Below, piece by piece: positions 11,733-54,844 of a DNA stretch of 64,000 nucleotides. Source of the stretch: Candidatus Niyogibacteria bacterium CG10_big_fil_rev_8_21_14_0_10_46_36 (GTDB lineage Bacteria; Patescibacteriota; Minisyncoccia; 1-14-0-10-42-19); the NCBI GenBank assembly GCA_002772995.1, contig PFCO01000001.1, forward strand, positions 64,244-128,243, written 5' to 3'. The notes under the pieces are model-generated. The model saw nothing but the letters and a program-made list of their open reading frames with translations, searched no databases and was not told where the DNA came from. Positions within the stretch are counted from its first letter, which is position 1, and every line of letters starts with the position of its first letter. The position numbers were made by a program, and so were the translations under genes.

Positions 11733-13445
11733 TTAGGGCTCTATGATGGCCCGGATGCGCCGGACACCTGCTGAAGAAGATTCTTCTTTGGTGATAGTTA
11801 TCTTCCCTATCTCTCCGGTGTGCCGTACATGCGGCCCTCCGCAGAGTTCGCGGGAAAACACTTCGCCGTCTTTTACAACACTATAGACGGAAACGCGCTC
11901 CGGATATTTTTCTTTAAAGAATGCGAGCGCCCCGTTCCGTATTGCATCCTCATATGCCATCTCTTCCATTATAACATCAAAATCGCCCTCAACCACTTTG
12001 TTTGCCATGTCTTCTATCTGCTGGAGCTCATCCTGAGTAACCTTGCGCGGGAAGGTAAAATCAAAACGCGTGCGTTCCGCGGTGATATCGGAACCTGCCT
12101 GCTGTACATCGCCCCCCAATACCTTGCGGAGAGATGCCTGGAGCAGATGCGTTGCGGTGTGCAGGCGGGTTACTTTTTTGACCTCTTCGTCGTTTGCCGC
12201 CTTTAATTCTCCGGTGTTCAAAATAAGTCCGTGCCCGCCGAATTTTTTCTCTTGGCCTTTGCGCGATGCTTCTTGATGGCGCTCAAATTCCTTATCAAAG
12301 TTTTCTCGTTTTAATGCTGAGGCATGCTCTCCCCCCTCTTCTTTTATAATTTCGTACGGAATCCCGTAGCTTTCGTACAACATAAATGCGGACTCCGCAG
12401 TAATCATGTCTTGCTTGTGTAATTCCCGCAATCCTCGGCGAAGCGTTTTTGAAAATTTTTGGTATTCTTCATCAAACACGCCCTCGATAACAGCATAGGT
12501 AAGATTTTTGTAAAACGAGCTATACTCCCGAACAATATGCTCAAATGCTTTTTTGATGTTAATCCCCTTTTCGCCATACACAATGATGCGACGCATGAGC
12601 CTGCGCAGCACATACCCGGAATCTTTATTGGAAGGACGCACGCTATCTGCAATCAAAAACGCAACTCCACGGACATGATCAGCAAAAATTCTTTTTCTAC
12701 GGATATCCATTGCTTCAGGGAGAAGCGCCATAACAGACCTAAATAAATCCGTATCAAAAATAGTCGGCACGCCCTGCGAAACCATTGCGAGCCGTTCAAG
12801 CCCCATGCCTGTATCCACGCCGGGTGTTTCGAGCTTGCGAAGTGTTTTATCGGGGTTGCAATAAAATTCGTTAAACACAATATTCCAGACTTCTATATCT
12901 TTCCCTCCGGCGCTTTTTACATATATTTCCGTTGTCGGCCCGCATGGCCCCTCGCTCCCGGTGGGACCCCAGAAGTTATCTTCGCGGCCTAATTTTTTTA
13001 TGTTTGTAACGCCGAGCGCTTTCCATATCTCTTCAGACTCGGTGTCGGCGGGCACTTCGCTATCGCCCTCAAACACGCTTACATATTCTATCGGCAAGCC
13101 GATTTCTCTCGTAATAAAATCATATCCATATTGGATTGCCTCCTTTTTAAAATACCCGCCAAACGAAAAATTTCCGAGCATTTCAAAAAATGTCAGATGC
13201 GACTCGTCTCCCACTTCGTCAATATCAGAAGTACGAAACGATTTTTGCACAGAAGCCGTATTCTTGCTCCCAAAATCGCGCACCGGATCCGCCCTACCAA
13301 TAAAGTAAGGTTTAAATTGCTGCATCCCCGCGGTCGTTAACAACACCGACGGGTCATCAGGAATAAGAGAAGACGACGGGACGACCGCATGGCCCCGTTC
13401 CTTAAAAAAATCAAGAAATTTTTCACGGAGTTCGTTTGAATTCAT
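11733..13445 (-). CDS. alaS: Alanine--tRNA ligase, short form (570 aa) lacking the C-terminal C-Ala domain
   Basis: MNSNELREKFLDFFKERGHAVVPSSSLIPDDPSVLLTTAGMQQFKPYF (class II aminoacylation domain); HTATHLL and CGGPHV editing-domain motifs. Confidence 0.85.
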   Translation of the reverse strand: MNSNELREKFLDFFKERGHAVVPSSSLIPDDPSVLLTTAGMQQFKPYFIGRADPVRDFGSKNTASVQKSFRTSDIDEVGDESHLTFFEMLGNFSFGGYFKKEAIQYGYDFITREIGLPIEYVSVFEGDSEVPADTESEEIWKALGVTNIKKLGREDNFWGPTGSEGPCGPTTEIYVKSAGGKDIEVWNIVFNEFYCNPDKTLRKLETPGVDTGMGLERLAMVSQGVPTIFDTDLFRSVMALLPEAMDIRRKRIFADHVRGVAFLIADSVRPSNKDSGYVLRRLMRRIIVYGEKGINIKKAFEHIVREYSSFYKNLTYAVIEGVFDEEYQKFSKTLRRGLRELHKQDMITAESAFMLYESYGIPYEIIKEEGGEHASALKRENFDKEFERHQEASRKGQEKKFGGHGLILNTGELKAANDEEVKKVTRLHTATHLLQASLRKVLGGDVQQAGSDITAERTRFDFTFPRKVTQDELQQIEDMANKVVEGDFDVIMEEMAYEDAIRNGALAFFKEKYPERVSVYSVVKDGEVFSRELCGGPHVRHTGEIGKITITKEESSSAGVRRIRAIIEP

Positions 13446-16212: not shown

Positions 16213-17658
16213 TCAATGCTCTTCTTCCAGAATAATCTCCGAGGGAGATGCCTTAAAATGTTTTTTTAATATAGCGATTATAGCATCTTTCCCCTGTTCG
16301 TATTCCTCAGGCGGGATGAAGATATCTCCCATACTAATATCTTGGTGATAATGTTTCAAGATGAACGAAGAATCCTCCATACTAAGAGCAGTTCGGATGC
16401 CAAATTGCTTACGGATAATCATAAGGGGGGTCATGGAAAGCGCGGAAAAAAGAGAACGTGTTTTTTCGTGTTCTTTTTTGGACGAAATGCCTTCTTCATA
16501 GTCTAAAAACTTGCTCTGAGAAAATACCAGGAACGGGTGCACCGATATTTTCTGGAAATCCCGCCGCATGTTCTTAAACAATGTTTCAGCTCCTGAATTT
16601 TTCCCCCATATGCGCACCACGCGCTTGGCGGGTTTACGCGCAATCAGCCTGCCTGACCACGAAAATGGATGTGTTTCCGCATACTGATACAACAATTCAA
16701 AAAAAGTCGTATCTTGGAGCATAACATATTCTTCAAGATCGCTCGGGATAGGATAGTCTATTTCGCGGGTAGAAAATGCTTCTTTCAGATAATATTCAAA
16801 GCAACGCACTGTCTTGTGAAAATACACCTGCGTGAACATGTTGTAGCGCGCGAGCAAATAATATTCAAACGAGTGAACGCCCGCTTCAAAAATAGATGTT
16901 ATATATTCCCCCTTTCGCTCTATGACGCCGAACGAATTGATAAGCCAATATGCGTCGTAGTTGCCGTACGGAACGCCGGTAAAATATGAATCGCGTAACA
17001 GATAATCCATCCGGTCGATGTCGATATCGCCGGATATCCACGAACGGATAAGCGCATGAAGTGCTTTTGTGTTGATGTCTGAAGAAAATTGCTTGTGCCA
17101 TGAATCAGGAATACGGATGTGTTTATGGATGAGAGACGCTATAATCTCCGCTTCGGTTTCTGACAAAACCGCCTTATATTTCCGTCCGCGGAAAAGCACA
17201 TCTTTTGCAAGCGCGTATATGATAAGGACGCTGTAATCTTCGTGTTTCGCGCGCCGAGCCTGCTTTTCTTTAAAACGGGATTGTGGGATAGCAAGGTCTT
17301 TCAAATCGGGCATATGATACTCTGTTGCGTGAGAGAACGGCGCATGTCCGATATCATGCAAGAGTCCCGAAAGCTTCATCATAAGCATTAGGAATTCTTT
17401 TTCTTTTTTCTTGAGAACCCGCGCAAGCACAGAATATTCTTTGTTGTAAAAAAATTGCCGGCCGATGAGAGACGCCATATGCATCGCACCCAATGAATGC
17501 GAAAAACGGTCGTGTACCGCGCCAGGAAATACAAAATGCACAAGCGCTAACTGCTTAATGTGGCGCAAACGCTGAAAGTACGGATGGTCAATGACTGTTT
17601 TTTCCCGCTCGCCATACGGAATAATCCGGTGGATAGTATCATTAATCTTGTAGCGCAT
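16213..17658 (-). CDS. HD-domain dNTP triphosphohydrolase (dGTPase-like), 481 aa
   Basis: HDRFSHSLGAMHMAS ... LLHDIGHAPFSH motif pair typical of the Dgt/SAMHD1 family. Confidence 0.75.
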   Translation of the reverse strand: MRYKINDTIHRIIPYGEREKTVIDHPYFQRLRHIKQLALVHFVFPGAVHDRFSHSLGAMHMASLIGRQFFYNKEYSVLARVLKKKEKEFLMLMMKLSGLLHDIGHAPFSHATEYHMPDLKDLAIPQSRFKEKQARRAKHEDYSVLIIYALAKDVLFRGRKYKAVLSETEAEIIASLIHKHIRIPDSWHKQFSSDINTKALHALIRSWISGDIDIDRMDYLLRDSYFTGVPYGNYDAYWLINSFGVIERKGEYITSIFEAGVHSFEYYLLARYNMFTQVYFHKTVRCFEYYLKEAFSTREIDYPIPSDLEEYVMLQDTTFFELLYQYAETHPFSWSGRLIARKPAKRVVRIWGKNSGAETLFKNMRRDFQKISVHPFLVFSQSKFLDYEEGISSKKEHEKTRSLFSALSMTPLMIIRKQFGIRTALSMEDSSFILKHYHQDISMGDIFIPPEEYEQGKDAIIAILKKHFKASPSEIILEEEH

Positions 17659-17667
17659 AATTCCAGC

Positions 17668-17700
17668 ATACCATAGAAAAAGCCCCGCTCTTACTGACGG
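17668..17700 (-). terminator. Intrinsic terminator downstream of folA fusion gene
   Basis: Minus strand: gccccgtcagtaagagcggggc followed by TTTTTCT. Confidence 0.6.
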
Positions 17701-17710
17701 GGCTTACGGG

Positions 17711-18484
17711 TTACATAACCTGTATTGCATAATATTCGATAATAGAATTTGCAAGAAGTTTTTGGCACATTGACTCAACGCTCTTGCGGATGCTTGCCGA
17801 GCTTGTCCCGCGCATTTCAAGCTGTATGCGCTTTCCAATCCGTACGCGATTCACATGAGTAAACCCGAGCGTGTGAAGTCCCTTCATAATAGCAGCCCCT
17901 TCCGGATCAAGAATAGAATCCTTCGGCATGATTTCAACGACGACATGGAATGCCCGCTCGAGGACACTCCGTTCTTTTTCGGTCAACTTTGCGTAGGTGA
18001 CATACGCGTGGCGATGCATGTTCTCTTCATCAGGCAATGCTTCAATGCGGGATATTTCTTTCCACCATGAGGAATCAATATCCGGGAAGAACGCGTCTCC
18101 CTCGCACTCATAATCAATTTCGGTGATATAAAGCCGTTCGGTATATCTCAATCCCTCCTTATACACCACTGAACCGCCAATAATAAATATCTCTTCTGCG
18201 TGAGGAGATATTTGGGCATAAAAAAGCCCCTCACCTAATGAATGCGCGACAAGACACCCCGGAGCCGCGTATACATCACGCTTTGTGATAACAATATTAG
18301 TCCTTTGCGGAAGGGGCTTTTTTCCAATTGACTCAAATGTCTTTCGTCCCATGATAACCGGATGCCCTTTTGTCATACTCGCAAAGTACGCCATATCCTT
18401 CGGTAAATGCCAGGGCAACTTTCCCCTATGTCCGATAACATTGTTTTTTGCCATAGCCGCAATCATTGATACCGCCATAATCAT
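17711..18484 (-). CDS. folA: Dihydrofolate reductase fused to a C-terminal PurS domain, 257 aa
   Basis: N-terminal ~175 aa is DHFR (IGHRGKLPWHLPKDMAYFASMTKGHPVIMGRKTFESIG, IIGGSVVY). C-terminal ~80 aa matches PurS closely (ILDPEGAAIMKGLHTLGFTHVNRVRIGKRIQLEM...SMCQKLLANSIIEYYAIQV versus the PurS VLDPQG...LGF...VRIGK...MCEKLLANTVIEDY pattern). Confidence 0.85.
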   Translation of the reverse strand: MIMAVSMIAAMAKNNVIGHRGKLPWHLPKDMAYFASMTKGHPVIMGRKTFESIGKKPLPQRTNIVITKRDVYAAPGCLVAHSLGEGLFYAQISPHAEEIFIIGGSVVYKEGLRYTERLYITEIDYECEGDAFFPDIDSSWWKEISRIEALPDEENMHRHAYVTYAKLTEKERSVLERAFHVVVEIMPKDSILDPEGAAIMKGLHTLGFTHVNRVRIGKRIQLEMRGTSSASIRKSVESMCQKLLANSIIEYYAIQVM

Positions 18485-18490
18485 CTCTCC

Positions 18491-19426
18491 TTACACCGCG
18501 ATGGGCGCTTTTATCGCCGGATACGGTTCATAGTTGAGTAATGCAATATCGCTGTACGAAAAATCAAATATCGAATCAATAGATGCATTAAGCTTAACAA
18601 CCGGTAACGGCTTGGGAGCGCGTTCAAGCTGTTCGTTCACTTGTTCTATGTGATTTCTGTAAATATGAACATCGCCGAATGTGTGCACGAATTCATGCGG
18701 CTTGAGCCCGGTTACACGCGCAATCATGCATGTAAGCAGGGCGTAGGAAGCGATATTGAAAGGAACGCCCAAAAATACATCAGCACTTCGCTGGTACATG
18801 TGGCACGAAAGGTTGCCGTCTGCGACATAGAACTGGAAAAAACAATGACATGGTGGAAGCGCCATCTTGCTGATATATGAAACATTCCAAGCGCTTACGA
18901 TAAGACGCCTGCTATCAGGGTTCTTTTGTATCTGGGACACGACATCCGCTATCTGGTCTATCGGCTTTCCGTCCAGTCCTGGCCATGCGCGCCATTGTTT
19001 TCCGTACACGGGCCCAAGATCCCCCCACCGGAGCGCAAAGAGATTGTCCGTCCGTATTTTTTCTGCAAATTCTTGAGCGGACTCGCCTGCATATTCCTCG
19101 CTTTTCTTATACGCCGCAAACGGCCAATCGTCCCAAATGTGTACTTTTTTTTCAACAAGAGATTGGATGTTTGTTTCTCCGCGCAAAAGCCACAGCAGCT
19201 CCTCAACAACCAAACGAAACGGCATTCTTTTTGTTGTAAGCAGCGGGAATCCTTTTTTGAGATCAAAACGGAGCTGGCGGCCAAACACGCTTTTTGTACC
19301 CACGCCCGTTCTGTCTTCTTTTTCATTTCCGTTGTCTCTGATGTCACGCAATAAGTCTAGATACGCCTGCATGCATATTCTCCCTGTAAAAGAATTTTCT
19401 TTATTTTGCCACCAAAAAAACCGCAC
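18491..19426 (-). CDS. thyA: Thymidylate synthase (ThyA type)
   Basis: [47 protein letters not shown]. Confidence 0.95.
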
Positions 19427-19450
19427 GGCAAGCCGTGCGGATTGGTATAT

Positions 19451-20095
19451 TTAAATCTGTATACCAAATCTTCTTAAGAAAAATGCATCAATACATTTTT
19501 TTGTTTTCTTCCAAACATCTTCCACGGAGCGTGAGGCGTCGATGATGTTCCATCTGTTTATGTCTTCTTCCGCCTGCTCTAAGAAGCTTTTGCGGACGCG
19601 CCGTTGGTAATCCATATCCTTTTTTTCAAACGATGTTTCGGCCCTTGCTCGTGTGAATGCCTTTTCCGGGTCTACATCATACAGCAGTATCATGTCAGGC
19701 CACGTGCCGCTTCGGGCTTTGCCGCTTTGTTCTCTGATACGATTGACGGGCATGCCTCCACCTGCACCCTGATATGCGATACTTGAGGGTTCGAATCTGT
19801 CGCAAAGCACTATTTTCTTTTCTTTGAGCGCAGGAAGGATCTTTTGTTCTACATGTATCCGCCTGTCTTCGCAAAAAAGCGCCAATTGCTCCTCTGCGGT
19901 CAATGATTCGTCAGAGAGCACCTTTTCACGGATTGCAATATCACCGCCCCCCGGCTCTTTCGTCCGCAGTACAGGATATCCTTTGCTTTCCAAATACCGC
20001 TCTGCCATTTCTAGCTGAGTGGTTTTTCCTACCTTGTCGCCTCCTTCAAATAAAATAAAAATGCCCCTCGGCAATGCTTTCATATACATATACAC
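19451..20095 (-). CDS. tmk: Thymidylate kinase
   Basis: P-loop ILFEGGDKVGKTTQ, LID region; real start probably MKALPRG a few codons inside. Confidence 0.9.
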   Translation of the reverse strand: MYMYMKALPRGIFILFEGGDKVGKTTQLEMAERYLESKGYPVLRTKEPGGGDIAIREKVLSDESLTAEEQLALFCEDRRIHVEQKILPALKEKKIVLCDRFEPSSIAYQGAGGGMPVNRIREQSGKARSGTWPDMILLYDVDPEKAFTRARAETSFEKKDMDYQRRVRKSFLEQAEEDINRWNIIDASRSVEDVWKKTKKCIDAFFLRRFGIQI

Positions 20096-21264: not shown

Positions 21265-21849
21265 TTATGTTTTTTTTGTGCGCAGTCCCGCGTCCCTCTT
21301 TGGCAAAGCGCCGTCAAGCGGCACTTTGGTCACTTTGAGCCGGTAATTTTCTCTATGTAATATGCCGCCCTTGTTTGTCATATCATCAAATAACTGCTGG
21401 AAGAGTTGCTGATAATCGACATAGCGCTGCTCAAAGACAATATCTTTTCTTTTCAGCTCACTCATGAACTCTTTTCCTTTCGCGTTGTCATACTCGCCGT
21501 AACAAATAATCTTTTTTATTCCTACCGAAATAAGTGTCCGTAAGCATCGGATGCATGGCGTACCTACTATCATAACCGTTGCCCCTTCAAGCTGTTTCGG
21601 GTCGGTATTGAACACAGCATTCTCTTCGCTATGGTTGGTGCGCTCACAATGACCGTCAATCATAAGATGGCCCGCTTCGTCACAATGCGGCTCTCCGGGA
21701 AGCGACCCATTGTACCCAACTCCGACGATACGCTTGTTTTTTATTATGCCGCTTGCAATATGGAACCGATCGCAAGTCGACATAGGAGTATGGCATAAAA
21801 TAGAACACAAAAATACCCGCTCACGCTTTTCATCCCGTTCCTTGCTCAT
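21265..21849 (-). CDS. dCMP deaminase (cytidine/deoxycytidylate deaminase family)
   Basis: HSEENA (H[AS]E) and PCIRC (PCxxC) zinc-binding motifs. Start placed at MSKERDEK; track ORF extends to 21912. Confidence 0.8.
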   Translation of the reverse strand: MSKERDEKRERVFLCSILCHTPMSTCDRFHIASGIIKNKRIVGVGYNGSLPGEPHCDEAGHLMIDGHCERTNHSEENAVFNTDPKQLEGATVMIVGTPCIRCLRTLISVGIKKIICYGEYDNAKGKEFMSELKRKDIVFEQRYVDYQQLFQQLFDDMTNKGGILHRENYRLKVTKVPLDGALPKRDAGLRTKKT

Positions 21850-21902
21850 GATATATGTCTCCTTTTGAATGTACTGCACCGTTATTGTATGTATTTCGGA
21901 AC

Positions 21903-21932
21903 AAAAAAACAACCCCGCCGTAAGCGGGGTTG
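21903..21932 (-). terminator. Intrinsic terminator downstream of rplK
   Basis: Minus strand: caaccccgc-ttacg-gcggggttg followed by TTTTTTT. Confidence 0.7.
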
Positions 21933-23215: not shown

Positions 23216-26511
<3,296 letters not shown>

Positions 26512-27440: not shown

Positions 27441-28967
27441 TTATCGCTTTACTAGCGTAACTTTTACCGAAACGGTCGGACTAACATTATCTCGAAAACG
27501 CATATTTGCGGGTAAAATAAGCCGTGAAGAGAATGTTTTTGTCGCATCGAGCCCGTCTACGCTGATAGGCTGAGTAATAATGAATTCAGGGGGCACTATG
27601 CCCTCAGGGACTAACACGCCTACGCGGTCAGGCGTTATGGTTATTGAACTTATACGGTAACCGCTTGCTACAGTACCTTGGGTGTCTGTGCGCACCGAAA
27701 CATCAAAAGAATTGAATTTTTTCACCTGGACGGTTATCTGCGAAGGAACTACCTCAACCACCGAAAAGCTCGCTGGATGGATAATCATATCTTCGCTTAA
27801 CACAATAACATTACGCCCCTCCGAAAAATTTTTTGCGTCGACTGCAATCTCTATAAGCCGTTCGTCAATGCGCTCAAACGCAAGCTGGCCACGGCTTACA
27901 AAAGTAACAGTGACTTCGCGCGGTTCGGACTCCTGAATAAAGAGACGCTCCGGCAAATTACGGTACACGATGGGCAACGAGAAACTCCGCTGAACCGTTT
28001 CTGCCTGGAAAGAAAAGAAGAACCATATAACAAGCGCGCTCCCCACTGCAAGCAATTTAAGATACGAGTTGTGTTTTATAAAATCAGTCCACATAGAACC
28101 TACCGGACCTTGCGCCATATCTTTATAAAATTTTTTCAAAGATGATTCGAGTTCCTCAACGCTGCCAAGCTCCTTTAGTTTTCCGTTATGCGCAACGGAT
28201 ATCGTTCCGCGTTCCTCTGAAACAGATACCGCCAGAGCGTCCGTATGTTCGGCAATACCCAATGCTGCACTATGACGAGTCCCCCGCTTTCCTATCTGCT
28301 TAAAATTTGACGAGAGCGGCAAGTGTGCGCCAAGCCGTGCAATACGGTTTTTGCTAATAATTACCGCACCATCATGCCCGATAGAATGCGGATCAAAAAT
28401 GCTCTCTAAAAGCTCTTCGGAAATAAGACCGTCAATGCGCTTCCCTCCATCAAGAAAACGCTCGATATTTTCATTCCCCGGGAATACAATGAGCGCTCCC
28501 CGTTTTTCTTTTGCAAGCTTTGCCACGGCCTGCAATATTTCATTAACATCAAATGGGAAGATGGAGGTTTCCTGTTTGAGCTTAAACTGCCGCGTATTCC
28601 AGAAAGAAATGAACTCAAAAAATCGCCGGAGCTCCTGATTGAAAATAATGACAAGCACAACAATAAACACCGCAAAGAATGATTGCAGCACCAGCGAAGT
28701 GAGATACAGATGGAACGCCTGGGCAAGCGAATAAATGATAACCAAAATACCGATGCCGGCAAGAATTGGCCAAGAGTGCGTCCGCTTAAATAAGATGATT
28801 ATAATGTACAAAAAAAGCGCGATTATGAGCACGTCAAAAACATCAACAATACGGACATTGCTAAAAAATCCGTCTATTGAATACAAAGTAGCGAGTAATT
28901 CCTGCATATATGTATCATAACAAAAAGCCTGAAAGAGAAAAAATCCGCTCTTCACGGATTCTCCCAA
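27441..28967 (-). CDS. cdaA: Diadenylate cyclase CdaA fused to CdaR/YbbR-domain regulator, 508 aa
   Basis: Three N-terminal TM helices; DAC-domain motifs HDGAVIIS, GTRHSAALG, SEERGTIS; then a fourth TM segment and ~230 aa resembling YbbR-type beta-rich repeats. Confidence 0.8.
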   Translation of the reverse strand: MGESVKSGFFLFQAFCYDTYMQELLATLYSIDGFFSNVRIVDVFDVLIIALFLYIIIILFKRTHSWPILAGIGILVIIYSLAQAFHLYLTSLVLQSFFAVFIVVLVIIFNQELRRFFEFISFWNTRQFKLKQETSIFPFDVNEILQAVAKLAKEKRGALIVFPGNENIERFLDGGKRIDGLISEELLESIFDPHSIGHDGAVIISKNRIARLGAHLPLSSNFKQIGKRGTRHSAALGIAEHTDALAVSVSEERGTISVAHNGKLKELGSVEELESSLKKFYKDMAQGPVGSMWTDFIKHNSYLKLLAVGSALVIWFFFSFQAETVQRSFSLPIVYRNLPERLFIQESEPREVTVTFVSRGQLAFERIDERLIEIAVDAKNFSEGRNVIVLSEDMIIHPASFSVVEVVPSQITVQVKKFNSFDVSVRTDTQGTVASGYRISSITITPDRVGVLVPEGIVPPEFIITQPISVDGLDATKTFSSRLILPANMRFRDNVSPTVSVKVTLVKR

Positions 28968-32347: not shown

Positions 32348-33880
32348 TTATTCATATTCAATCGTCGCAGGCGGCTTTTGAGTGATATCGTAGAGTACCC
32401 GGTTTACTCCTTTTACTTCCCGGACTATGCGGTTTGAAATGCGCTCAAGCAAACTGTGGTTCATTTTATACCAGTCGGCAGTCATCCCATCTACAGAGTG
32501 CACCGCGCGGAGCGCAATAATGTGCTCATATGTCCGCGCATCTCCCATTACTCCCACTGTGCGTAATGGCAAAAGAACTGCAAACGCCTGCCATATCTTT
32601 CCGTATTCCCCCGCCCTCCGCAATTCTTCTATATAAATAGCGTCTGCTTCACGCACCATATGCAACCGCTCTTCGGTAACTTCTCCCACAACGCGGATAG
32701 AAAGACCGGGCCCCGGAAACGGGTGGCGCCAAAGCACTTTTTTGGGCAAGCGTAACTCTTCTCCGAGCCTCCGGACTTCATCCTTATACAGATCGGCAAG
32801 CGGTTCGAGGATGTGGAACCCAAACCGTTCCGGCAATGTGAGATTGTGGTGGCTTTTTATTTTTTCTGCCACATGCGAACCATACGCGGACTCTATCCTG
32901 TCCGGATAAATGGTGCCCTGCGCTAGAAACCGTACGGGGTATTTTTTAAAATCATATGCAATCATCCGTTCAAATACATGGATAAATGTATGCCCGATAA
33001 TCTTCCTTTTCTTTTCCGGATCCTCTATTCCCTTCAGCCGTTCAAGAAAATTCTTACGCGCATCCACGGTACGTATGTCATGGAGGCCTTGCGCGGTGAT
33101 TGCTTTTCCCACCGCCCCGACTTCGTCTTTGCGCAATAATCCATTATCAACAAATACGCCGTGTAGTTGTCTGCCGATTGCACGATGAAGCAGCGTTGCC
33201 GCAACAAGAGAATCAACACCCCCTGAAAGCGCGATGACAACATGCGCGTCCCCCACCATTTCTCGCATAGAAGCAATAATCTCATCTTTCAATATGGGCA
33301 TACTCCAATTCTTCTTGGCGCCGCATACAGAAAAGACAAAATTGGCAATAATGTCCTTTCCCCGTTTTGTATACGCGACTTCGGGATGAAACTGCACTCC
33401 AAACCACGGTTTTTTCTCATGAGCAAACGCAGCATGAGCGCAGGCTTCAGTTGAAGCAATCGCCTGGAACCCCTGCGGAAGCATATACACATAATCTCCA
33501 TGAGAAAACCACACAGGTTCTTTTTTTGTGAGCCCTTTAAAGAGCGGGTTGCGCGAGGTACATGATATTTTTTCTTTTCCGTATTCGCGGACTTCTCCCG
33601 TCCGCACAACCCCCCCGAAAAATTTTGCCATGACCTGCGCACCGTAACAAATGCCGAATACCGGTATACCTAATTCAAAAATCTCTTTTTGCGGACGCGG
33701 ATATCCGTTCTCTAGCACAGACCGCGGACCGCCCGAAAGAATAATACCCACAGGATGGAATGCCCGTATCTCTTCTATCGATGCCTGAAAATGCAAAATC
33801 TCGGCACGCACGCCGAGATCCCGTATTCTCCTTGCTATAAGATGAGCGAATTGTGAACCGAAGTTCAATATTACAATCAT
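32348..33880 (-). CDS. guaA: GMP synthase (glutamine-hydrolysing)
   Basis: GATase N-term (FGICYGAQ), ATP-PPase SGGVDS motif, C-terminal dimerisation domain. Confidence 0.95.
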   Translation of the reverse strand: MIVILNFGSQFAHLIARRIRDLGVRAEILHFQASIEEIRAFHPVGIILSGGPRSVLENGYPRPQKEIFELGIPVFGICYGAQVMAKFFGGVVRTGEVREYGKEKISCTSRNPLFKGLTKKEPVWFSHGDYVYMLPQGFQAIASTEACAHAAFAHEKKPWFGVQFHPEVAYTKRGKDIIANFVFSVCGAKKNWSMPILKDEIIASMREMVGDAHVVIALSGGVDSLVAATLLHRAIGRQLHGVFVDNGLLRKDEVGAVGKAITAQGLHDIRTVDARKNFLERLKGIEDPEKKRKIIGHTFIHVFERMIAYDFKKYPVRFLAQGTIYPDRIESAYGSHVAEKIKSHHNLTLPERFGFHILEPLADLYKDEVRRLGEELRLPKKVLWRHPFPGPGLSIRVVGEVTEERLHMVREADAIYIEELRRAGEYGKIWQAFAVLLPLRTVGVMGDARTYEHIIALRAVHSVDGMTADWYKMNHSLLERISNRIVREVKGVNRVLYDITQKPPATIEYE

Positions 33881-50706: not shown

Positions 50707-51387
50707 CTAATATTCCACATCATCCTTATACGCGATAACTTTTACATGAGAAACGCCCGCGCGCCCGGAAAGCTCCCGCACAAATTCATCAATACGAAGG
50801 GTGTCAATAAACTTTACATGATACACCATCTCGGACGCAGTACCTCCCTCTCGTGCGTTAATGTTCAAAAGCATGCTATTTTTTATGTATTTCTGAAACA
50901 ACTCCTCAAATGAGTGGGACCCGCCGTCCTTACTGTCCACAATAAACGAAAGCAGATGTTCGTGCGAATGGAATGAACCGAAATTAATCTTTGTAAGAAA
51001 AAAGATTATCGCTAATATCAGCGCTGTCGAAACAAGCGCAATCGCGTAATTTCCGGTACCAACTGCCATACCCACACCCAACGCAAAGAAAATAAATCCT
51101 ACATCTTTCGTATCTTTGACCGGCGTCCTGAACCGGATAATGGAAAAAGCGCCCAAGAGAGCAAATGCCCGCGCAACGCTGCTCCCGATGACCATCATCA
51201 CCATTGCAACGATAACCGATACCAATACAAGCGTGAATACAAAGGACTGCGAATACGACACCCCGCGATGGGTTTTTTTATACACATACGCAATCAAAAA
51301 AGACAACCCAAATGTGAGCAGGATATTGAACGCAATATACGGAATGGAGAAAGACGCCCCCGCGCCTTCCGAAAATAAACTTTCCAT
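50707..51387 (-). CDS. DUF4956-family membrane protein, 226 aa
   Basis: 4 TM helices then soluble C-terminal domain; pattern recalled as matching DUF4956 proteins that accompany VTC-domain genes. Confidence 0.6.
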   Translation of the reverse strand: MESLFSEGAGASFSIPYIAFNILLTFGLSFLIAYVYKKTHRGVSYSQSFVFTLVLVSVIVAMVMMVIGSSVARAFALLGAFSIIRFRTPVKDTKDVGFIFFALGVGMAVGTGNYAIALVSTALILAIIFFLTKINFGSFHSHEHLLSFIVDSKDGGSHSFEELFQKYIKNSMLLNINAREGGTASEMVYHVKFIDTLRIDEFVRELSGRAGVSHVKVIAYKDDVEY

Positions 51388-51392
51388 ATGGA

Positions 51393-52139
51393 TTATATAA
51401 TACCGTCCCGTAAAGAAAATGCAATAGAGTCTTTCCGGGATGCATCAAGGCTCTCACAATACTTAGAATACGACATGCGGTGCAAATTGAATTCCCGGAT
51501 AACCTCATGCAGATAGAACGGGAGCTTGCCGTTGAATTTTACCTCCATAACGGTCTTGTCTTGCAGCACCGGAACAAAATCCTCTCCTTCATATATAAGC
51601 GAATTGTGTTTTCGTGCGCGTATGTTCCGGTCAAAGGTTATCCGCACATTTTCATTTAACGAGCCGACGAACGGTTCCCGCTCATACACAACCAGCACCT
51701 CAGGCGCAATAGACCGCAATAACTTCTCCGACAAGAATTCTTGGATAACGTTGTCTTTTTTTTCGGAAAGGGTGTCTTCTTCCCGGCCGGCGAATAGCGC
51801 ATACTCCTTTTTTGAAACATATATTCTATCTTTTAAGATAATAGCGTCATCTTTCCGCTTTATCTCAAAGAATATGTTCTCTGAGAAGACGCCGTTTTGC
51901 TTGTACGCCCGCCATCGTATCTTTTTTCGCTTTCTTACGCCGTCTTTTTTTTCATGGTAATAGAAATAGCGAGGACTATCATAATACAAGCTCCATATTT
52001 CATATGACCCGGTTTGTGATTCTGCAGCACGCGGATCACGAGACATAAATGGCTTAATGCGCTTCTTTATCAAAAATTCTTGCTGCGGAGAGAGCAGATA
52101 TTTAAATTCAAATCGCTGAAAATGAAGCTTGGGAAGCAT
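51393..52139 (-). CDS. VTC-domain protein (polyphosphate-polymerase-like triphosphate tunnel), 248 aa
   Basis: HFQRFEFKYLL start and spaced R/K/E residues typical of the bacterial VTC (CYTH-like) domain. Confidence 0.65.
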   Translation of the reverse strand: MLPKLHFQRFEFKYLLSPQQEFLIKKRIKPFMSRDPRAAESQTGSYEIWSLYYDSPRYFYYHEKKDGVRKRKKIRWRAYKQNGVFSENIFFEIKRKDDAIILKDRIYVSKKEYALFAGREEDTLSEKKDNVIQEFLSEKLLRSIAPEVLVVYEREPFVGSLNENVRITFDRNIRARKHNSLIYEGEDFVPVLQDKTVMEVKFNGKLPFYLHEVIREFNLHRMSYSKYCESLDASRKDSIAFSLRDGII

Positions 52140-52144
52140 AATGG

Positions 52145-54844
52145 TTAAGGATTAAAGATGATGCTTGAATACTCATCGCTTTGCGTATCGATGCCGTTTT
52201 TTTGGAAGATATTGCCATGCAGCTCCGGCATGCCCCCGCCGAATATTTCTTTTTTGCGGTACGCATGCACTCCTATATTATTGCCCGTGATCTCATTGTT
52301 GCTAATAACCGGAGTAGAAAGGTCTTTTACTTCAATGCCGATATTGCAGCCGGTCAAGATATTGCTTGAAATACTATTGCCCTCTGACTTCTCTCCCACG
52401 CTAATGCACTTATCACCAGAGCGCGAGATGGTATTGTTGCGTATCACCAGGCCGCTTCCTGCCCCCGAAAGGTCAATGCCGTCATTTCCGTTCTCTACAA
52501 ATGTGTTCCCGGAAACAATGCCGTGCTTAATATAATCAAGATCAAGCGCATCTGCGCTATTGTGCTCAAATATATTGTTTATGATATCTACTGTCCCATA
52601 CTTCACATTGAGCCCGTCATCCGCATATGCTCCGGCAACAGCGTTATGAGAAAATACAACATCAGCATTATATACAGAAAGCATCCCCGAAAAAAATATC
52701 CCATTTATATTGGCCTCACTTCCGCCACGCATATCAACATATTCAAACACATTCTTAGCATCTCCAGTATTTGCAACCCCAAACACTCCCCAAGCCACGC
52801 CTTCCCGCAATGGACGGAAAGAAATACGCGCAAACTCGCTCCCGCGCGCTTCAACCGGACTATATGATACAAGCGAGGCTCCTTCCTGGAACAAAAGCGT
52901 CGCTCCGGGAGAGACGATAAATGTTGTCCCTACGGGTATCACGGTGATGCCGCTCATAATATGCGTGCCGGAAGAAAGTACAATACTCCCGTTCCGTAAG
53001 AAAAAACCGGCGCGCGAAGACACAAACTCCTGCGGAGACATTGCTATGTCCTTAAAATGATGGAAGGTTGTCTTATCTATGAATCGGGTTTCGGTAAAAT
53101 CAAATTCTTCATGCGTAATTAAGTTCACAAACAAAATATGAACATCCTGCCACGCAAAAGGCATACCTTGCCCAAATGGCTCAAATGTCACGAATATCGT
53201 TTTTGTATCCTTTTTCTCCGGCGATGGAGAAAAATGAAGCGGAATACCCGGAAAGACGACACTATTTTTGCCCGAAATAAATTCCTGGGACAGAAGCGCG
53301 TCTCCCGCATCATGTATGTTATTCTTGTTAGAATCTTCAAATACACGCGCGTTCCCTATTGCTTCTCCAGCAAAGGGAATAGTGAGTGTTTTAACCGCGC
53401 TATCTCCCAATCCCTCTACCGCTATATCTATTTGCAATTCATGCGCCAATGCATCAAGCGAGATAACCCCATTTGCTTGCGTGTCCTGTAGCTGGCCGCG
53501 GAGCAAAAAAAAGCTATCCTGAAAGTCGCTTCTGTTTTGTCTGACTTTAGCGTCAAATGTTCTATTACTATCGTATTTTGCAAAATCACGATAAAAATGG
53601 GGGCGTAAATCGTGATACACCTGATCGAAAAACGCAATGTCGTCTTCTATATTACGGTCATCAGACACATACGCCCAGAGTACTTCTTTTTGGCGAAAGG
53701 AAAATTCGGGATACGCAAGCACCCGATCCACCAGCTTATCATTGCATGCGACAAAATCATTGAACGAAGCACAGCCATCCTCCCCCAAAAAAGGCAAGCT
53801 GATATCCGAACTTATACCGACATCCCAGGGTATAGTCTCAAATTTTCCGCTGCTTGGGTTAGCATACAAACGAACATTCCCGCTTTGACTTTGATGTTTA
53901 CTCCCCGCAAGAAGCGACATGGCGTTCCACGCATAAAATTTTTCCAAATCAAGTATATTGCCGATGTCACGCTGGAATGCGTCGTCAGGCTCTTTTAAAA
54001 CCCACAACAGCGTATCAAGGTCAGCCCTATTCTCAAAATTAAACCGCCCATCATCTGTCTGCTTGTCCCAAAAGGAGATACCATCATACGCAGAAAGGCC
54101 ATCTCCTTCGGAGAGAGATATGTCTTCGGTAATATACAAATTAGCATCGGACGGCAATTCGGAGCGTTCCAAGAATTCTTTTGACCAGTCTTCTATCTGG
54201 TAGTACACTCCCATATCTTTTCCGTTAACACGCAATGTCACATATTTTGCGTCGGGCACAGCAAGGCCAAACTTCTGGGCGCGGTAATCATTCAAGTATT
54301 TTACAAAATACTCGCGGTCGCTTGGAATGATTAATTTTATCACCTCTATACCTCCAAACAAATCTTCTTTTTTAAAATCTACTTGCCAAGATCGTTTTGT
54401 GCGCACCCAATGGTTCGGGTTATCGCCGCGATATCTGACTTTTACCTCATGCTCTCTTCCATTAAAAAAGAAACGCGCCGGCACTTCTTTTTTGAATTCA
54501 TCGCTCAGCCACGCTTCCCCCCGGAGCACCGCATCAGAAAACGGATCCGGAAGATTTGCGTTGAGCGCGCGGAGGTCCTCGCTATCAATTTCAAGGTCGT
54601 ACGAAAGAATATCTGCGCCTCCAAACATATATGGAATATATGCGAGGTTCGAGATATTTACCCCAAGCTCACGGAGCCCCCGATATGTCGGCAATATTTT
54701 TTTTACCAACGGATTAAACACAAGCGCATTTTTGTTCTGCTGCAGAAACACAAGGAGAAAAAACGCATCCACAACAAAAAACCCCGCTATGAGAGCAAAG
54801 AGCGCATATCGCATATATCTTTTTCTTCGGGGCGAAAAAAGCAT
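52145..54844 (-). CDS. CotH-like atypical kinase domain protein fused to a C-terminal right-handed parallel beta-helix, 899 aa
   Basis: N-terminal TM anchor, central region with CotH-like pattern (KRSWQVDFKK..., KYLNDYRAQ..., DANLYI), C-terminal ~200 aa of NNxIxxN pectate-lyase-like repeats (NNIFEHN, GNTFVENGNDGIDL, RNNTISRSGDKCISV, SNNEITGNNIGV). Confidence 0.6.
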   Translation of the reverse strand: MLFSPRRKRYMRYALFALIAGFFVVDAFFLLVFLQQNKNALVFNPLVKKILPTYRGLRELGVNISNLAYIPYMFGGADILSYDLEIDSEDLRALNANLPDPFSDAVLRGEAWLSDEFKKEVPARFFFNGREHEVKVRYRGDNPNHWVRTKRSWQVDFKKEDLFGGIEVIKLIIPSDREYFVKYLNDYRAQKFGLAVPDAKYVTLRVNGKDMGVYYQIEDWSKEFLERSELPSDANLYITEDISLSEGDGLSAYDGISFWDKQTDDGRFNFENRADLDTLLWVLKEPDDAFQRDIGNILDLEKFYAWNAMSLLAGSKHQSQSGNVRLYANPSSGKFETIPWDVGISSDISLPFLGEDGCASFNDFVACNDKLVDRVLAYPEFSFRQKEVLWAYVSDDRNIEDDIAFFDQVYHDLRPHFYRDFAKYDSNRTFDAKVRQNRSDFQDSFFLLRGQLQDTQANGVISLDALAHELQIDIAVEGLGDSAVKTLTIPFAGEAIGNARVFEDSNKNNIHDAGDALLSQEFISGKNSVVFPGIPLHFSPSPEKKDTKTIFVTFEPFGQGMPFAWQDVHILFVNLITHEEFDFTETRFIDKTTFHHFKDIAMSPQEFVSSRAGFFLRNGSIVLSSGTHIMSGITVIPVGTTFIVSPGATLLFQEGASLVSYSPVEARGSEFARISFRPLREGVAWGVFGVANTGDAKNVFEYVDMRGGSEANINGIFFSGMLSVYNADVVFSHNAVAGAYADDGLNVKYGTVDIINNIFEHNSADALDLDYIKHGIVSGNTFVENGNDGIDLSGAGSGLVIRNNTISRSGDKCISVGEKSEGNSISSNILTGCNIGIEVKDLSTPVISNNEITGNNIGVHAYRKKEIFGGGMPELHGNIFQKNGIDTQSDEYSSIIFNP

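Follow-up and report, generated by a model that had tools for sequence, protein, structure and literature searches.

We found that a single open reading frame in the 64-kb stretch of DNA analysed here (hereafter the window), from the tiny groundwater bacterium Candidatus Niyogibacteria, encodes a complete dihydrofolate reductase (DHFR) of the FolA type together with a complete PurS, the small subunit of the purine enzyme FGAM synthetase (FGAR amidotransferase), and we confirmed this observation with curated family models and orthologues from other assemblies. DHFR-PurS unites known families in a combination for which our literature search gave no published description, and most likely represents two neighbouring genes that fused rather than a new function. 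Based on the sequence comparisons presented below, we consider it somewhat probable that the product is a bifunctional protein made of DHFR and a canonical PurS, born of a fusion between neighbouring genes; purL and purQ would then lie at other places in the 827-kb genome.

The folA::purS gene and its operon

The open reading frame is single and unbroken on the minus strand (17711..18484) and codes for 257 aa when read from the first ATG, as in the list of open reading frames. In the order of the DNA, the TAA stop codon of thyA is followed by GGAGAG and then by ATG-ATT-ATG, the upstream ATG (18484) standing two codons before a second in-frame ATG at 18478. The latter is the start adopted by gene callers and found in all orthologues, and gives a product of 255 aa; residues are numbered here on the 257-aa frame. 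Both domains exceed the curated cut-offs, in agreement with an earlier note on this DNA, which had read DHFR and PurS in one frame from the letters alone. They are joined by a linker of about 14 residues and have equal GC and GC3 contents. The coordinates of the gene, its domains and its neighbours are collected in Table 1.

Table 1. Features of the folA::purS locus, in window coordinates
Feature	Position	Strand	Details
folA::purS fusion gene	17711..18478	-	255 aa; stop codon 17711..17713; public product PIR69899.1 / UniProt A0A2H0TEC6
DHFR (FolA-type) domain	17987..18472	-	aa 5-166 of the 257-aa ORF; PF00186
Short charged linker LTEKERSVLERAFH	17945..17986	-	aa 167-180; from the orthologue alignment
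PurS domain, full length	17717..17944	-	aa 181-256; PF02700, NF004630, TIGR00302
GGAGAG ribosome-binding site	18485..18490	-	adjoins the thyA stop, ahead of the folA::purS start
thyA	18491..19375	-	293 aa from ATG 19375; PF00303 394.6 bits; TIGR03284 470 bits (cut-off 108)
Terminator-like hairpin	17680..17705	-	9-bp stem, T-rich tail; begins 6 nt past the folA::purS stop
Terminator-like hairpin between tmk and thyA	19421..19440	-	delimits the two-gene thyA-folA::purS unit
tmk (dTMP kinase)	19451..20095	-	PF02223; TIGR00041 142.8 bits (cut-off 83)
HD-domain protein, dNTP-triphosphohydrolase-like, weak match	16213..17658	-	PF01966, PF19276; TIGR01353 26.6 bits

We also considered an internal start from which PurS would be translated separately, and rejected it: the TTG codon at L167 occurs solely in this sequence, lacks a Shine-Dalgarno sequence and is absent in the orthologues. 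An AlphaFold model of the fusion, computed from a 5-sequence alignment, was poor (pLDDT 56.6) and was left unused; in a deeper mixed alignment, the rows containing PurS only were split over both domains.

A homologue search covering 5.8 billion proteins recovered the protein itself (PIR69899.1 / UniProt A0A2H0TEC6, assigned to Candidatus Niyogibacteria bacterium CG10_big_fil_rev_8_21_14_0_10) and four more orthologue clusters of 254 aa, 62-65% identical and all with both Pfam domains. The identical protein is encoded on 5 independently assembled contigs, and an ENA assembly carries a nucleotide-identical copy of the fusion gene. The gene is seen on contigs of up to 459 kb, the 459-kb one carrying the 257-aa version, and the fusion is also present on contig JAUYHD010000038.1 of assembly GCA_030690215.1. 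In the four diverged clusters, which come from NCBI, JGI, ENA and Logan assemblies, the frame, the linker length and the synteny are kept; in three DNA-diverged orthologues, the DNA of the junction was examined and is in frame. Because five contigs, the identical ENA assembly and the four diverged clusters agree, we regard as excluded, with a practically negligible residual probability, that a frameshift or a lost stop codon in sequencing or assembly merged two genes, the danger raised in the earlier note. The fusion is real and inherited.

An exhaustive HMMER search with the PurS domain as query among 1.84 billion representatives yielded 2192 PurS relatives, in which the DHFR-PurS clade counts for one representative (P0003). 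Further PurS fusions are found among these relatives, namely PurC-PurS, tandem PurS and PurS with a domain of about 270 aa. The latter is seen in P0180 (360 aa) and P0237 (341 aa), where the conserved domain is fused to the C-terminal side of PurS, lacks any match in Pfam and bears a D[TS]G motif; it constitutes an undescribed PurS architecture. In the library covered by our literature search, no paper mentions PurS alongside DHFR or FolA. The database names cover one half of the protein at most: UniProt A0A2H0TEC6 and NCBI MDP2677078.1 are called "PurS", and PIR69899.1 "hypothetical protein". A metagenome scan anchored on the downstream HD gene gave only homologues with at most 36% identity, from which it follows that the clade is absent from the scanned collection.

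The earlier note had placed the gene in a thyA-folA context belonging to the dTMP cycle, and this holds: thyA, assigned by TIGR03284 with 470 bits, lies directly upstream. It ends 6-12 nt before folA::purS, with its TAA stop codon at 18491..18493, and its orthologues are likewise 293 aa long. The two genes are co-transcribed. In the established cycle, ThyA makes dihydrofolate, which DHFR reduces back to tetrahydrofolate. Upstream of thyA we observed tmk, a NUDIX gene, a dUTPase gene and a gene of the dCMP-deaminase family, and downstream of the fusion the HD gene; the neighbourhood is a dNTP-metabolism cluster. The HD gene is also the syntenic downstream neighbour in the related loci L001-L005, and the order thyA, fusion, HD, secDF recurs in the NCBI, JGI, ENA and Logan assemblies of the relatives.

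This arrangement recalls the bifunctional DHFR-TS of protozoa and plants, in which DHFR likewise carries a second domain and is tightly linked to thymidylate synthase. In the present locus, the link is one of operon adjacency, across the gap of 6-12 nt. Unlike in DHFR-TS, DHFR is fused to PurS, ThyA is a polypeptide of its own, its stop codon being followed by the ribosome-binding site and start codon of folA::purS, and nothing in our data shows substrate channelling.

Other variations were seen in the cluster. The gene adjoining the dUTPase gene in the window (21265-21912, minus strand) encodes a ComEB-like protein of 215 aa from the dCMP/cytidine-deaminase family, and in relatives the same slot holds a dCTP deaminase, DCD, of 188 aa (L001:6528-7094, L003:6405-6971, L006:3487-4053). 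This is the second non-orthologous swap in the same dNTP cluster, the other being that of the thymidylate synthases described below. In a group of distant, possibly archaeal loci with an HD gene at 34% identity (L107-L118, e.g. L108:8200-11251), tmk is located 1-2 kb upstream of the HD gene, and the two are separated by a conserved protein of about 175 aa of unknown function and by a tRNA-like sequence. We rejected the idea that a "tmk-slot-HD" order in six distant metagenome loci is the same arrangement as in our clade, the slot being occupied there by the unrelated protein of about 175 aa. The pairing of tmk with the HD gene is older than the clade studied here, since it is present in distant HD loci.

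Conservation of the DHFR and PurS halves

The N-terminal half matches the Pfam DHFR_1 model over positions 2-159 of 159 (E = 5.8e-56; 189 bits for a cut-off of 25). With the NCBIfam equivalog for type-3 DHFR, NF008037, it reaches 123.5 bits, under the cut-off of 168, which makes it a divergent member of the family. In a pairwise alignment, it is 39% identical to FolA from E. coli over 161 aa. The catalytic and ligand-binding residues of E. coli FolA are W22, D27, F31, R44, T46, R57, G95-G96, Y100 and T113; their equivalents in the fusion are W25, D30, F34, R47, T49, R61, G103-G104, Y108 and T121, and they are invariant in all five orthologues (5/5). Since these residues are present and invariant, the DHFR half looks catalytically competent.

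The C-terminal half was assigned to PurS with equal completeness, as the earlier note had predicted from its motifs. It matches the Pfam PurS model over positions 2-77 of 77 (E = 1.5e-26; 92.8 bits, cut-off 22.2) and passes both NCBIfam equivalogs, NF004630 with 93.4 bits (cut-off 75) and TIGR00302 with 81.9 bits (cut-off 39). By sequence, it retrieves from the PDB the PurS of M. jannaschii (2YX5) and of B. subtilis (1T4A) at about 1.7e-13, and chain B of the T. maritima PurLQS complex (3D54) at 5e-7; 1T4A and 1TWJ are structures of B. subtilis PurS/YexA. As in these known proteins, the C-terminal 76 residues of the fusion make up a full-length PurS, in which the motifs DPxG, LG[FY], (R)xGK, MCxKLLxN and IExY are kept. 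It differs from them in being covalently joined to DHFR and encoded in a thyA operon, not beside purQ, purL or purC, and in that its partner genes were not found in the roughly 9% of the genome that was read.

PurS is not known to have catalytic residues. We compared the clade with 104 ordinary standalone PurS representatives, among which 32 columns reach a conservation of at least 60%. The PurS domains of the clade, which are 47-61% identical to one another, carry the consensus residue in 153/192 cells (0.80) at these columns; the mean for ordinary PurS is 0.82. Seven residues that are each conserved to at least 95% family-wide (D193, P194, G196, G217, L244, N246 and E250) are invariant in the clade, and the comparison of conserved columns reveals no obvious surface specific to it. 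As judged from these alignments, the clade PurS gives no sign of relaxed or redirected constraint.

Such conservation bears on the possibility that PurS is a non-functional passenger, a remnant of a decayed pur operon left on the end of DHFR. The lack of pur genes nearby and the reduced genomes of CPR bacteria would agree with it. We consider it very improbable because the domain is intact in six lineages diverged to about 50% identity, where it is full length, without stops or indels and with its conserved positions kept, and because the 92.8 bits of the fusion lie near the 85-113 bits of ordinary PurS domains.

Neighbours and partners of PurS

The best standalone match to the PurS half, P0121 (97 aa, 49% identity), comes from a ThyX-type relative (Logan SRR22387992) and is encoded at a locus (L006) with the same syntenic cluster of nusG, L11, dCTP deaminase, dUTPase, NUDIX and tmk genes. 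At this locus, a 568-aa tandem ThyX replaces thyA and folA, and the start of purS overlaps the stop of thyX by 4 nt. The organism belongs to the same clade (NusG 93-95% identical; dCTP deaminase and Tmk 89% and 75% identical to those of L001), and its PurS is 49-61% identical to the fused PurS domains, which are mutually 53-58% identical. The fusion loci all have thyA directly upstream, whereas the slot of the ThyX-type locus is devoid of DHFR. ThyX does not produce dihydrofolate, and DHFR is thus dispensable in that slot. As this sister without DHFR in the slot retains an orthologous standalone PurS, PurS is selected independently of DHFR.

When L006:6298-8294 is set beside 17711-19375 of the window, we see that ThyX has taken the place of ThyA/DHFR at the same site by non-orthologous replacement, or that the exchange went the other way. 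There is a weak resemblance between the first residues of the standalone PurS (MKKLSNRLF...) and the stretch of the fusion where DHFR ends and the linker follows (..KLSEKEY..), and the standalone PurS of the sister may be derived from the fusion.

The sister lineage also speaks to the possibility that PurS is merely a dimerisation or stability scaffold for DHFR, with no partner of its own. This would be in line with the short linker of constant length and with the obligate homodimers that PurS forms in known structures (PMC3815217). The sister without DHFR keeps an intact, equally conserved standalone PurS, and the polar family-invariant residues D193, N246 and E250, which a scaffold would presumably not need, are kept in the clade; we find a scaffold improbable.

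Beyond the clade, the DHFRs closest to ours that are not fused (51-55% identical) belong to thyA-folA pairs, and PurS is absent from their surroundings. The same backbone, pheS-gyrB-nusG-L11-deaminase, occurs in more distant Paceibacteria, whose slot is occupied by a Tmk-ThyX(-dNK) fusion; PurS, DHFR and the HD gene are absent from the slot of those loci examined. The position of PurS beside a thymidylate synthase is therefore a feature of this clade only, as far as the outside loci examined go. A concatenated ThyX+PurS+HD query gave 31 matches, all through the ThyX part except P0314 and none from the clade, and no ThyX-PurS fusion was present among the 31 long-ThyX relatives.

The long form of ThyX in Patescibacteria is usually fused to enzymes of the dTMP pathway (P0284-P0306; L174:10001-12277; L175:10001-13084). 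We observed Tmk-ThyX (up to 1027 aa), Tmk-ThyX-deoxynucleoside kinase, dCTP deaminase-ThyX and one CotH-LTD-ThyX, and these fusions occupy the same syntenic slot, after nusG-L11-deaminase.

Gene fusion is common in this CPR dNTP cluster. Tmk-ThyX, Tmk-ThyX-dNK and DCD-ThyX come from the same fusion-prone cluster and position, in related CPR, as DHFR-PurS; they differ from it in that they join consecutive enzymes of the dTMP pathway, and none of them contains PurS or DHFR.

We then looked at the purine genes. As the earlier note had remarked, no de novo pur genes are visible around the fusion: purL, purQ and the others were not found in the 64-kb window, where guaA (32348..33880) is the sole purine gene. 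The DNA read for this search consisted of the window, extended by 8.7 kb to its left and by 2.9 kb to its right, i.e. about 75.6 kb, or about 9% of the presumed source MAG of 826,912 bp (11 contigs, 915 genes, GC 45.5%). A Paenibacillus operon supplied probes for purQ, L, F, M, N, H and D, and these had no match in the 75.6 kb (~9% of the genome) or in the syntenic loci of the relatives.

As a control set, we used 80 ordinary PurS loci among the matches listed by a GTDB genome scan with the clade PurS alignment, all of them non-CPR. Among these listed matches, 73 of 80 loci contain purQ, which is no more than 300 nt away from purS in 64 of the 80, and 55 of 80 contain purL, whereas neither gene is seen in any clade locus and thymidylate synthase is always adjacent; such adjacency to purQ, purL or purC is typical of the PurS family, not strictly defining.

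A large partner on the N-terminal side is compatible with the canonical role of PurS, because a PurC-PurS fusion (P0124, 347 aa, with a partner of about 260 aa) sits in a full operon, purB-purC::purS-purQ-purL-purF-purM-purN-purH-purD. There, PurS is C-terminal to an enzymatic domain, as it is in DHFR-PurS. Similarly, large PurL has a PurS-like domain at its N-terminus, so that PurS is also known as part of a larger protein of nucleotide metabolism (PMC3261824), although the role of this N-terminal counterpart is not clearly understood (PMC3815217). In PurC-PurS and in large PurL, PurS is joined to purine-pathway proteins whose genes are part of pur operons, whereas DHFR-PurS joins it to a folate enzyme in an operon for dTMP.

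The premise of a genome without purL and purQ, on which the recruitment of PurS proposed in the earlier note depends, is in general not a safe one, because purine modules have been reported in these bacteria: a complete de novo purine module was found in about 32% of CPR MAGs in one study (PMC11608272), and in Paceibacteria IMP is reported to be made from PRPP, in some of them de novo (PMC9166423). On the other side, de novo nucleotide synthesis is absent from many CPR bacteria (PMC8407418; PMC11809585).

In the bifunctional protein that we favour, the DHFR half would reduce the dihydrofolate made by ThyA to tetrahydrofolate, according to the established ThyA/DHFR cycle. The PurS half would dimerise and bridge small PurL and PurQ in an FGAM-synthetase complex of 2 PurS : 1 PurL : 1 PurQ. 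FGAM synthetase catalyses step 4 of de novo purine synthesis. In the ancestor of the Niyogibacteria-like clade, purS would have come to sit just downstream of the thymidylate-synthase slot; the slot then holding thyA-folA, loss of the folA stop codon would have joined two neighbouring genes of nucleotide metabolism. The fusion was presumably tolerated because the N-terminus of PurS accepts large partners, and a gain such as co-expression or a tethering of DHFR to the purine machinery is speculative.

This canonical function is supported by the intact domains, the retained PurS consensus, the PurS of the sister without DHFR, the PurC-PurS operon and the fusion-prone cluster, and also by the reported IMP synthesis in Paceibacteria/CPR and the requirement of small-PurL systems for PurS (PMC3261824; PMC3815217). 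What counts against it is that no pur genes occur in the clade DNA read, that PurS lies beside thymidylate synthase and never beside purQ, that many CPR lack de novo nucleotide synthesis, and that the other fusions of the cluster are confined to a single pathway, which might hint at a role in dTMP synthesis. If true, it would provide a small, clean example of neighbouring genes fusing in streamlined CPR genomes, with folate regeneration physically tethered to the purine FGAM-synthetase complex, and the annotation should read [quoted passage not shown].

As the main rival, PurS could be an orphan in genomes without PurL/PurQ and work in dTMP synthesis as an adaptor or regulator of dimeric form that might, for instance, bring DHFR and thymidylate synthase together, a role that we regard as unlikely. 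It would fit with the fusion of PurS to DHFR inside the thyA operon, with the translational coupling of purS to thyX (4-nt overlap) in the sister lineage and with the fact that clade PurS is never near purQ/purL, unlike PurS in 80-91% of the ordinary loci among the matches listed. The absence of pur genes from the clade DNA read, the joining of same-pathway enzymes in the other fusions of this CPR cluster and the many CPR without de novo nucleotide synthesis (PMC8407418; PMC11809585) point in the same direction.

Against an adaptor stands the conservation of the domain: the conserved positions are unshifted, the family consensus is kept and no obvious clade-specific surface has arisen. Furthermore, dTMP is made without PurS in the syntenic Paceibacteria (Tmk-ThyX) and in the nearest thyA-folA lineages, indicating that its synthesis needs no PurS in these outside lineages, and the 31 long-ThyX relatives contain no ThyX-PurS fusion. 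ThyA and ThyX have unrelated folds, which makes it unlikely that one surface of PurS binds both.

The adaptor is in essence the idea of the earlier note, which had suggested that PurS was recruited to another role. One finding favours this, PurS being beside either type of thymidylate synthase and not beside purQ, which lies within 300 nt in 64/80 of the ordinary loci listed. Against it stand a consensus retained at 80% vs 82%, a sister without DHFR in the slot that keeps PurS and outside lineages that do without it; taken together, the evidence leans against recruitment. That Niyogibacteria-like genomes of about 0.8 Mb lack PurL/PurQ and maintain a strongly selected PurS with a second, undescribed function in the thymidylate/folate cycle is, to our mind, unlikely. 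If PurL/PurQ were absent, no earlier case would match this one of a PurS at work apart from FGAM synthetase, and a second function of PurS, if true, would matter for our view of how minimal cells handle their nucleotides.

Other genes of the window

The rest of the 64-kb window contains CPR housekeeping and glycan genes, some of which have an unusual domain composition. A gene at 25336-26511 (minus strand) encodes a single-chain PheRS-like protein of 391 aa, with a class II catalytic core (tRNA-synt_2d) and, at the C-terminus, an FDX-ACB domain for anticodon binding. The presence of these two domains in one chain is the architecture of the mitochondrial monomeric PheRS. The best NCBIfam models of the protein are "PheS-related mystery ligase SrmL" with 248.6 bits (cut-off 300) and pheS_mito with 234.5 bits (cut-off 258). 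It is also encoded at L001:679-1854, L003:712-1887, L174:1920-3065 and L175:884-2080. No pheT was seen in the 64-kb window, and our literature search found no paper linking monomeric PheRS to CPR.

Bacterial alanyl-tRNA synthetase is normally about 870 aa long. The one of the window (11733-13445, minus strand) has 570 aa, and 610 aa in L001; it comprises the catalytic and tRNA_SAD domains, and the usual C-terminal region is apparently missing. At 27441-28967 (minus strand) we observed a chain of 508 aa in which the N-terminal membrane domain of CdaA is combined with the di-adenylate cyclase domain DAC and with a weak YbbR-like repeat; as a rule, CdaA and the protein that regulates it, CdaR (YbbR), are two distinct chains. 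Finally, genes for a DUF4956 protein, a VTC-domain protein and an 899-aa CotH-kinase / beta-helix protein are clustered at 50707-54844 (minus strand), and this cluster resembles a polyphosphate or spore-coat-kinase-like module, which is unusual for a CPR genome.
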